Below are positions 1 through 179 of a DNA stretch of 64,000 nucleotides, piece after piece. How positions within the stretch are numbered: position 1 is the first letter of the stretch; each line of letters starts with the position of its first letter. The notes under the pieces were generated by a model. The model saw only the letters and a program-made list of their open reading frames with translations, was not told where the DNA came from and made no database searches. Both the position numbers and the translations under genes were made by a program. This DNA comes from Escherichia coli (GTDB lineage: Bacteria > Pseudomonadota > Gammaproteobacteria > Enterobacterales > Enterobacteriaceae): assembly GCF_044324785.1 (NCBI RefSeq), contig NZ_CP172127.1. The stretch is one strand, 5' to 3'.

Positions 1-99
1 TGATTCGATGTGTTTGCGGGAAAAAAATCGGCCCAGATCCGCGAAATTTTAATCAGCGAGTCTGCTTGGGAAGAAATGACCTGCTTATTCGCACCTTCC
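1..99. mobile_element. Partial IS5-family insertion sequence end (terminal inverted repeat reads GGAAGGTGCGAATAAG on the minus strand, ending at 99); element continues beyond window start
   Basis: Minus-strand sequence 99->1 begins GGAAGGTGCGAATAAGCAGG..., which matches my recollection of the IS5 terminal inverted repeat; the adjacent TTAG/CTAA (100-103) fits the IS5 YTAR target. No tnaB-like start is found where K-12 has tnaB. Confidence 0.55.
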
Positions 100-179
100 T
101 TAGAGGAAGGCTATTTTTGTTATTGAGGATGTAGGGTAAGAGAGTGGCTAACATCCTTATAGCCACTCTGTAGTATTAA

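Follow-up and report, generated by a model that had tools for sequence, protein, structure and literature searches.

The window analysed here, a stretch of 64,000 nucleotides of Escherichia coli DNA, begins inside an insertion sequence that lies directly beside tnaA, on the side where tnaB is expected. The explanation that we hold with high confidence is an ISKpn26-type insertion into a TTAG (CTAA on the tna strand) in the spacer between tnaA and tnaB, probably as a full copy with an intact but uncoupled tnaB beyond the edge. In the proposed sequence of events, an ISKpn26-type element would have transposed into the spacer TTAG, 10 nt from the tnaB ATG, with its right (IRR) end on the tnaA side. 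The features of the left end of the window on which the argument depends are as follows.

Positions 1..99, plus strand: ISKpn26-type IS5-family 3' (IRR) end, corresponding to nt 1098-1196 of the 1196-bp element, non-coding
Positions 84..99, minus strand: 16-bp terminal inverted repeat (IRR), reading GGAAGGTGCGAATAAG, one exact match in the window
Positions 94..110, plus strand: junction hairpin CCTTCCT-TAG-AGGAAGG followed by CTATTTTTGT, equivalent to the terminator-like site at 4094..4110 of the relative's locus L008
Positions 100..103: TTAG (CTAA when read on the tna strand), the tetranucleotide target, which should be the right-hand copy of the 4-bp target-site duplication
Positions 104..179, minus strand: tnaA-proximal 76 nt of the native tnaA-tnaB spacer, unaltered (100% identity to the IS-free strain N3)
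Positions 180..1595, minus strand: tnaA (tryptophanase), intact, 471 aa, as in the RefSeq annotation of relatives at equivalent coordinates (L003-L014)
Positions 1816..1890, minus strand: tnaC leader peptide gene (MNILHICVTSKWFNIDNKIVDHRP), intact, inside the open reading frame 1816..1914 and annotated equivalently in relatives

An ISKpn26-type element adjoins tnaA

The first 99 nt of the window are an ISKpn26-type IS5-family end. They are identical at 99 of 99 positions to the right ends of the ISKpn26 copies at two other loci (L001 and L002) and at 98 of 99 to the complete 1196-bp copy of locus L004, onto which they align at nt 1098-1196. A megablast search with window positions 1..103 against 5,426 complete E. 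coli genomes returned 5,600 places in 2,372 genomes (E = 5e-46), many of them 100% identical to the window. The matches amount to 1-43 places per genome, on chromosomes and plasmids and at unrelated loci (yadL, ompF, pagP and others). At two matched loci, the RefSeq gene just upstream is annotated as 'IS5-like element ISKpn26 family transposase'. Elements of this type, delimited by their terminal repeats, are units of 1195-1196 bp.

The terminal repeat itself points the same way. There is one copy of the 16-mer GGAAGGTGCGAATAAG in the window, against 0.02 expected from shuffled sequences, and it matches the left repeat of complete copies (GGAAGGTGCGAACAAG) at 15 of 16 positions; IS5 is described as carrying 16-bp imperfect inverted repeats (PMC11677980). 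The window's IRR agrees with the published ISKpn26 IRR, and a comparison by eye of the published IRR 50-mer with window positions 99..50 on the minus strand gave 47 matches of 50 (PMC10569121). The transposase open reading frame ends at nt 1049 in complete copies, hence the 99 nt in the window hold no coding part. Strain DLI.5a carries a complete copy at this site, and the 326-aa transposase of that copy scores 366 bits on the NCBIfam model NF033581 'IS5 family transposase', whose cut-off is 140 bits. The IRR is the transposase-distal end; the transposase sense is on the plus strand, convergent with tnaA.

IS5 proper was considered as the element and rejected: against the IS5-type end of NCTC10444 the window end is identical at only 74/101 positions, versus 99/99 for ISKpn26. 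The terminal 30 nt differ between the two ends (GAAGAATTTCCCCGCTTATTC... in ISKpn26 versus GAAGAAATGACCTGCTTATTC... in IS5). Over their whole length, we measured 92.2% DNA identity between ISKpn26 and IS5, and about 91% has been published (PMC10569121). The initial annotation had recognized an IS5-type terminal inverted repeat downstream of tnaA, and the comparison of the first 99 nt with IS copies upheld it, giving an IS5-family match over all 99 nt and the repeat at 84..99. Its family label was right, but the element is of the ISKpn26 type and not IS5 proper; likewise, of the span 1-103 that it assigned to the element, positions 1..99 are IS, but 100..103 are the target tetranucleotide.

Elsewhere in the 64 kb we found no second IS copy, the sole IS match being 1..99, and no tRNA genes. 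A 792-aa open reading frame is located at 61588..63966 on the minus strand, near the right-hand end of the window.

The breakpoint lies in the spacer between tnaA and tnaB

Read on the minus strand, 3' of the tnaA stop codon, the native spacer continues up to ...CCTTCCTCTAA and then switches to GGAAGGTGCGAATAAGCAGG...; in full, the sequence past the stop reads TTAATACTACAGAGTGGCTATAAGGATGTTAGCCACTCTCTTACCCTACATCCTCAATAACAAAAATAGCCTTCCTCTAA, then GGAAGGTGCGAATAAGCAGGTCATTTCTTCCC... up to the window edge. Window positions 100..330 are 100% identical to strain N3, which is free of IS here, and to many other genomes. The empty site of N3 has a single TTAG and reads CATGATGCCACCT-TTAG-AGGAAGG; in the orientation of the window's plus strand it is ...CAGTCATGATGCCACCT-TTAG-AGGAAGGCTATTTTTG..., and on the tna strand the CTAA is followed by 10 nt (AGGTGGCATC, with the likely Shine-Dalgarno sequence among them) and then by the ATG of tnaB. 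The spacer is thus broken 80 nt past the tnaA stop codon, and a Py-T-A-Pu target directly abuts the IS end. Py-T-A-Pu is the IS5 target consensus, and ISfinder counts are 15 CTAG, 3 CTAA and 3 TTAG among 24 (PMC5493358). Judged from the aligned sequences, the breakpoint is exact, and the element lies between the two genes and leaves coding sequence uninterrupted, because the TTAG lies within the spacer, 10 nt from the tnaB ATG; the ribosome-binding region of tnaB stays with tnaB. The CTAA target proposed earlier at the place where tnaB is expected is therefore the TTAG/CTAA at 100..103, with the N3 tnaB ATG 10 nt beyond it.

The rest of the visible operon is undisturbed. The mechanical open reading frame of tnaA covers 180..1610 (476 aa, MKDYVMENF start), and annotated relatives begin at MENF (1595), 15 nt downstream. 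The tnaA region differs from N3 by 6 mismatches in 1.8 kb. Because tnaC is intact, regulation upstream in the operon is unaffected. A contiguous tnaCAB arrangement, with tnaB about 90 nt after tnaA, is not found: tnaC and tnaA are intact and the spacer between tnaA and tnaB is interrupted. A blastn search with N3 tnaB as query gave no match in the 64-kb window, and an ATG with TnaB-like sequence after it is absent from all three minus-strand frames of 1..103. This agrees with the earlier statement that no TnaB-like start is present at the left end. The same annotation took tnaB to be likely separated from tnaA, disrupted or subject to polar effects, and this is borne out so far as the window shows: the two genes have at least 99 nt of IS DNA between them, and tnaB is outside the window. 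The accompanying remark that only one minus-strand frame is open to the edge needs correction, as all three are open at the edge, but one alone does span the whole IS segment.

On the plus strand, the frame at 3..134 is open to a TAG at 132..134. In L003, L004 and L008, the RefSeq annotation places at 3934..4134 a 66-aa 'hypothetical protein' (WP_310796503.1 and variants), which starts in the IS and ends in the tnaA-tnaB spacer. This product, the counterpart of window 3..134, is almost certainly an annotation artefact, because its frame spans the junction between IS and host.

Other genomes carry an element at the same TTAG

Using the empty site as query, we scored 5,403 complete E. coli genomes for interruption of the spacer, which was uninterrupted in 5,389 and interrupted in 14. 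Thirteen of these 14 were also among the IS-bearing junction matches, and 11 genomes were examined in detail. All 11 have an element at the identical TTAG, and in 10 of them TTAG stands on both outer sides of the inserted block. An intact 415-aa tnaB open reading frame starting 15 nt past the IS end is present in 9 of the 11. It is frameshifted in NCTC10444 (1/11), and in TOK-001 (1/11) the 5' part of tnaB is lost, the product is annotated without its N-terminus and the far end of the IS adjoins a CTAA within the gene. The elements were of several types.

ISKpn26, window's orientation: DLI.5a, 2017.06.04CC, MB22 and TOK-001
ISKpn26, opposite orientation: STEC383 and MB30 (EC05 is listed among the junction matches, outside the 11 examined)
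IS5 proper, window's orientation: OV2 (a laboratory strain) and Z1323CEC0004
Mosaic variant (96% to ISKpn26, 94.5% to IS5), window's orientation: NCTC10444 and APEC 102026
Reversed IS5 joined to a 180-nt ISKpn26 remnant: KCJ3K291

The mosaic elements of NCTC10444 (L005, 2905..4099) and APEC 102026 (L012, 2836..4030) are 1195 bp long. Their left ends are like that of ISKpn26 and their right ends like that of IS5, so they may be recombinants of the two or a third variant. The block in KCJ3K291 (L003, 2725..4099) consists of a complete reversed IS5 (1195 bp, 99.4% to the OV2 copy) and the last 180 nt of ISKpn26. TTAG is found at both of its outer sides, and tnaB is intact. Such a composite must have taken two IS events in succession, at the site or within it.

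The window resembles four of these genomes in its insertion and differs from them in its background. DLI.5a, 2017.06.04CC, MB22 and TOK-001 share the element type, the TTAG and the orientation, and over the 330-nt junction they are 97.9-98.8% identical to the window; their tna haplotype, however, differs by 34-36 mismatches in 1.8 kb, as opposed to 6 between the window and N3. Across window positions 100..1900, IS-free N3 differs from the window by 6 mismatches, and the IS-bearing genomes each by 34-42. N3 is also the closest of the 5,426 complete E. coli genomes over the tnaC-mnmE region, at 99.4%; it is free of IS, and none is identical. The exact 37-nt junction pattern had 0 matches in the species-representative genome collection and 0 in the metagenome collection.

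Between tnaC and mnmE, at 2275..4461 on the plus strand, the window holds a low-GC gene of 728 aa whose RefSeq counterpart is named 'ShET2/EspL2 family type III secretion system effector toxin'. A 4.4-kb query spanning this gene (window 1600..6000) reached a coverage of at least 80% in 764 of the 5,426 complete E. coli genomes, and the gene is absent from all 11 of the examined genomes with an IS at the tnaA-tnaB site. The insertion in the window is most simply read as a separate event at a shared site, because its haplotype is near that of N3 and far from those of the IS-bearing genomes, and because the window has the ShET2/EspL2-like gene that the latter lack.

What lies beyond the edge of the window

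The window starts 99 nt inside a multi-copy IS, and for everything further left, namely the remainder of the element, the second TTAG and tnaB itself, the relatives serve as a guide. By analogy with them, a full 1196-bp copy would follow, then a second TTAG and an intact tnaB with its own Shine-Dalgarno region; for a simple insertion, the layout would be IRL + TTAG + AGGTGGCATCATG (tnaB). Such a full element with an intact tnaB just beyond the edge is, we estimate, the probable arrangement, held with rather less assurance than the insertion itself; the estimate is drawn from the counts among the 11 relatives at the same TTAG. Outright disruption of tnaB appears to be a less likely outcome, as 9 of the 11 relatives are intact. 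A start inside a multi-copy IS is typical of the end of a short-read contig; if the window begins at such an end, the true neighbour of the IS copy is uncertain.

The alternative that we take most seriously, while regarding it as unlikely, is an IS-mediated deletion or rearrangement in which tnaB was partly or wholly lost or moved, so that unrelated DNA or a truncated tnaB would follow the element. There is a precedent in TOK-001, which shares the ISKpn26/tnaA junction and has the other IS end inside tnaB at a different tetranucleotide (CTAA), and the high copy number of ISKpn26 (up to 43 places per genome) offers recombination substrates for such events. The absence of tnaB from the 64-kb window would also fit, but tnaB belongs on the far side of the IS, so its absence is expected whether or not a deletion took place, and this outcome was seen in only 1 of the 11 examined genomes. 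It is still less probable that the 99 nt are a truncated or solo ISKpn26 remnant, or part of a nested IS composite, and not a complete active copy. KCJ3K291, where the last 180 nt of ISKpn26 stand beside tnaA and are joined to a reversed full IS5, is an example of this arrangement, but the only one among the 11, and four other genomes with the ISKpn26 junction hold full 1196-bp copies. That the first 99 nt resemble an IS by chance and are not IS-derived can be set aside almost entirely: the 99/99 identity to thousands of dispersed copies adjoining annotated IS5-family transposase genes refutes it, as does the sharp breakpoint against the IS-free allele.

Expected effect on tnaB expression

The tnaC, tnaA and tnaB genes are transcribed from a single promoter upstream of tnaC, and tnaB relies on read-through past tnaA. 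A long stretch of untranslated antisense RNA is the classic setting for Rho-dependent polarity. With the element in place, tna transcripts would enter the IS at the IRR and run for about 1.2 kb untranslated, antisense to the transposase gene. Expression of tnaB could then fall through Rho-dependent polarity or through termination at a weak hairpin of terminator type, which lies on the tna-sense strand some 100 nt into the IS. In a consensus scan, several weak terminator-like hairpins were found on that strand inside the IS, for example at L008 4001..3988. We therefore consider polarity on tnaB, which the initial annotation had raised, to be likely, an expectation derived from established operon biology. 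The permease gene would be uncoupled from the tnaC promoter, and tnaA expression would be essentially normal. The expected phenotype would be indole-positive with reduced low-affinity (TnaB-dependent) tryptophan uptake, and indole formed from exogenous tryptophan would drop where TnaB is the main importer.

The insertion is also predicted to create a new structure at the junction. In the hairpin at 94..110, CCTTCCT from the IS terminus would pair with AGGAAGG of the native flank to give a 7-bp stem, followed by a T-run. Minimum free energy folds of the two strands gave -13.7 and -12.5 kcal/mol, versus -7.3 for the empty site. On the plus strand this looks like a predicted terminator, created by the insertion, for read-out from the IS towards tnaA; the tna-sense strand has the same stem, without a U-tract.

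Transcription in the other sense, from within the IS or reading out of it into tnaB, is conceivable, because IS5 activates some neighbouring genes (bgl, glpFK, fucAO and flhDC; PMC5493358) and carries an ins5CB operon transcribed divergently from ins5A (PMC11677980). A consensus scan for sigma-70 promoters in and around the complete same-orientation insertion, which is a weak negative by its nature, found 0 versus 2.1 expected.

Recurrent insertion at one tetranucleotide

Three element variants (ISKpn26, IS5 and the mosaic) have used the same TTAG; both orientations occur, and at least four tna haplotypes are involved. Py-T-A-Pu sites are plentiful: there are 502 in the 64-kb window, implying tens of thousands per genome. 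Two orientations give a conservative count of two independent events, and six or more are likely, a count blurred by recombination between IS copies, which mixes element types, and by homologous recombination, which moves the allele between backgrounds.

The TTAG is flanked by CACCT, which abuts it on the tnaB side, and by GGAAGG, 1 nt away on the tnaA side, so that CACCT-TTAG-A-GGAAGG resembles abutted IS ends (...CACCTTCC / GGAAGG...). In a post hoc count, a GGAAGG no more than 2 nt away was seen at this one alone of the window's 502 Py-T-A-Pu sites. IS-terminus-like flanks were absent at the two other insertion sites looked at (L001 and L002). We tentatively raise the possibility that the TTAG 10 nt upstream of tnaB is a genuine, previously undescribed hot spot for IS5-family elements, owing to flanks that mimic the termini, to selection, or to both. 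The flanks may possibly guide insertion by mimicking the IS termini. A compatible cause, also possible, is that uncoupling of tnaB from tnaA was repeatedly selected and would tune tryptophan import and indole signalling. A DNA-structure (SIDD) idea has been put forward for IS5 target choice (PMC5493358) and is another candidate cause of the recurrence.

A related argument holds that the insertion is neither neutral nor simply polar and is selected because it rewires tnaB, through IS-driven or constitutive expression or through a beneficial drop in import and indole, and that this explains the recurrence; we regard it as improbable. The recurrence itself speaks for it, since the TTAG was hit independently at least several times, in the laboratory strain OV2 among others, and so do the tnaAB::IS mutants that were selected with improved growth in experimental evolution (PMC3203608) and the known activation of adjacent operons by IS5 (PMC5493358). 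Yet an interrupted spacer in only 14 of 5,403 complete genomes means that any advantage is not general, the occurrence of both orientations argues against a specific outward promoter, the consensus scan found no promoter-like site, and a target-site hot spot would account for the recurrence without selection.

Comparison with known insertions

ISKpn26, which belongs to the IS5 group of the IS5 family, is known above all as the element that inactivates mgrB in Klebsiella pneumoniae resistant to colistin. The published element (1196 bp, with a 326-aa open reading frame at nt 69-1049; PMC8796155) makes a 4-bp duplication, and the complete copies at this TTAG match it in these respects. The present case differs from the published ones in showing the non-coding end only, in its host (E. 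coli) and in its target (the tnaA-tnaB spacer rather than mgrB). IS5 itself (1195 bp, E. coli K-12) has terminal 12 nt (GGAAGGTGCGAA) identical to those of the window end and the same 4-bp Py-T-A-Pu duplication, and it is inserted at this very TTAG in OV2, in Z1323CEC0004 and, reversed, in KCJ3K291; the two differ in that the end regions are only 74/101 identical, while the whole elements are 92% identical.

The tna locus has been hit by IS before. Rezwan, Lan and Reeves are said to have described, in J Bacteriol in 2004, IS damage to tna in indole-negative Shigella. Strain W3110 is set apart from MG1655 by copies of IS5 in its tnaB and in the region of tnaA and tnaC (PMC2072959). In experimental evolution, insertions of IS2 in tnaB and of IS5 in tnaA were selected, and tnaAB::IS mutations swept and gave better growth when re-introduced (PMC3203608). 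The insertions in W3110, in the evolved lines and in Shigella mostly struck coding sequence or the leader, whereas here the spacer is hit and the visible coding sequences are intact. In the library searched, we found no paper on IS5 at this exact tnaA-tnaB spacer site, and the two IS5 target-site papers found do not mention tna. Element, site and orientation are already present in annotated RefSeq E. coli genomes, and in this sense the insertion is an ordinary event that is already known.

For annotation, the locus carries a practical warning, namely that automated pipelines place a spurious 'hypothetical protein' across the IS/host junction. The insertion is a further example of IS5-family elements remodelling the tna locus, and the repeated use of one tetranucleotide adds modestly to the evidence on IS5 target choice. 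For the strain, the prediction is normal tryptophanase with a permease gene cut off from its promoter, so that the formation of indole from external tryptophan may change, a minor phenotype at the level of the strain.
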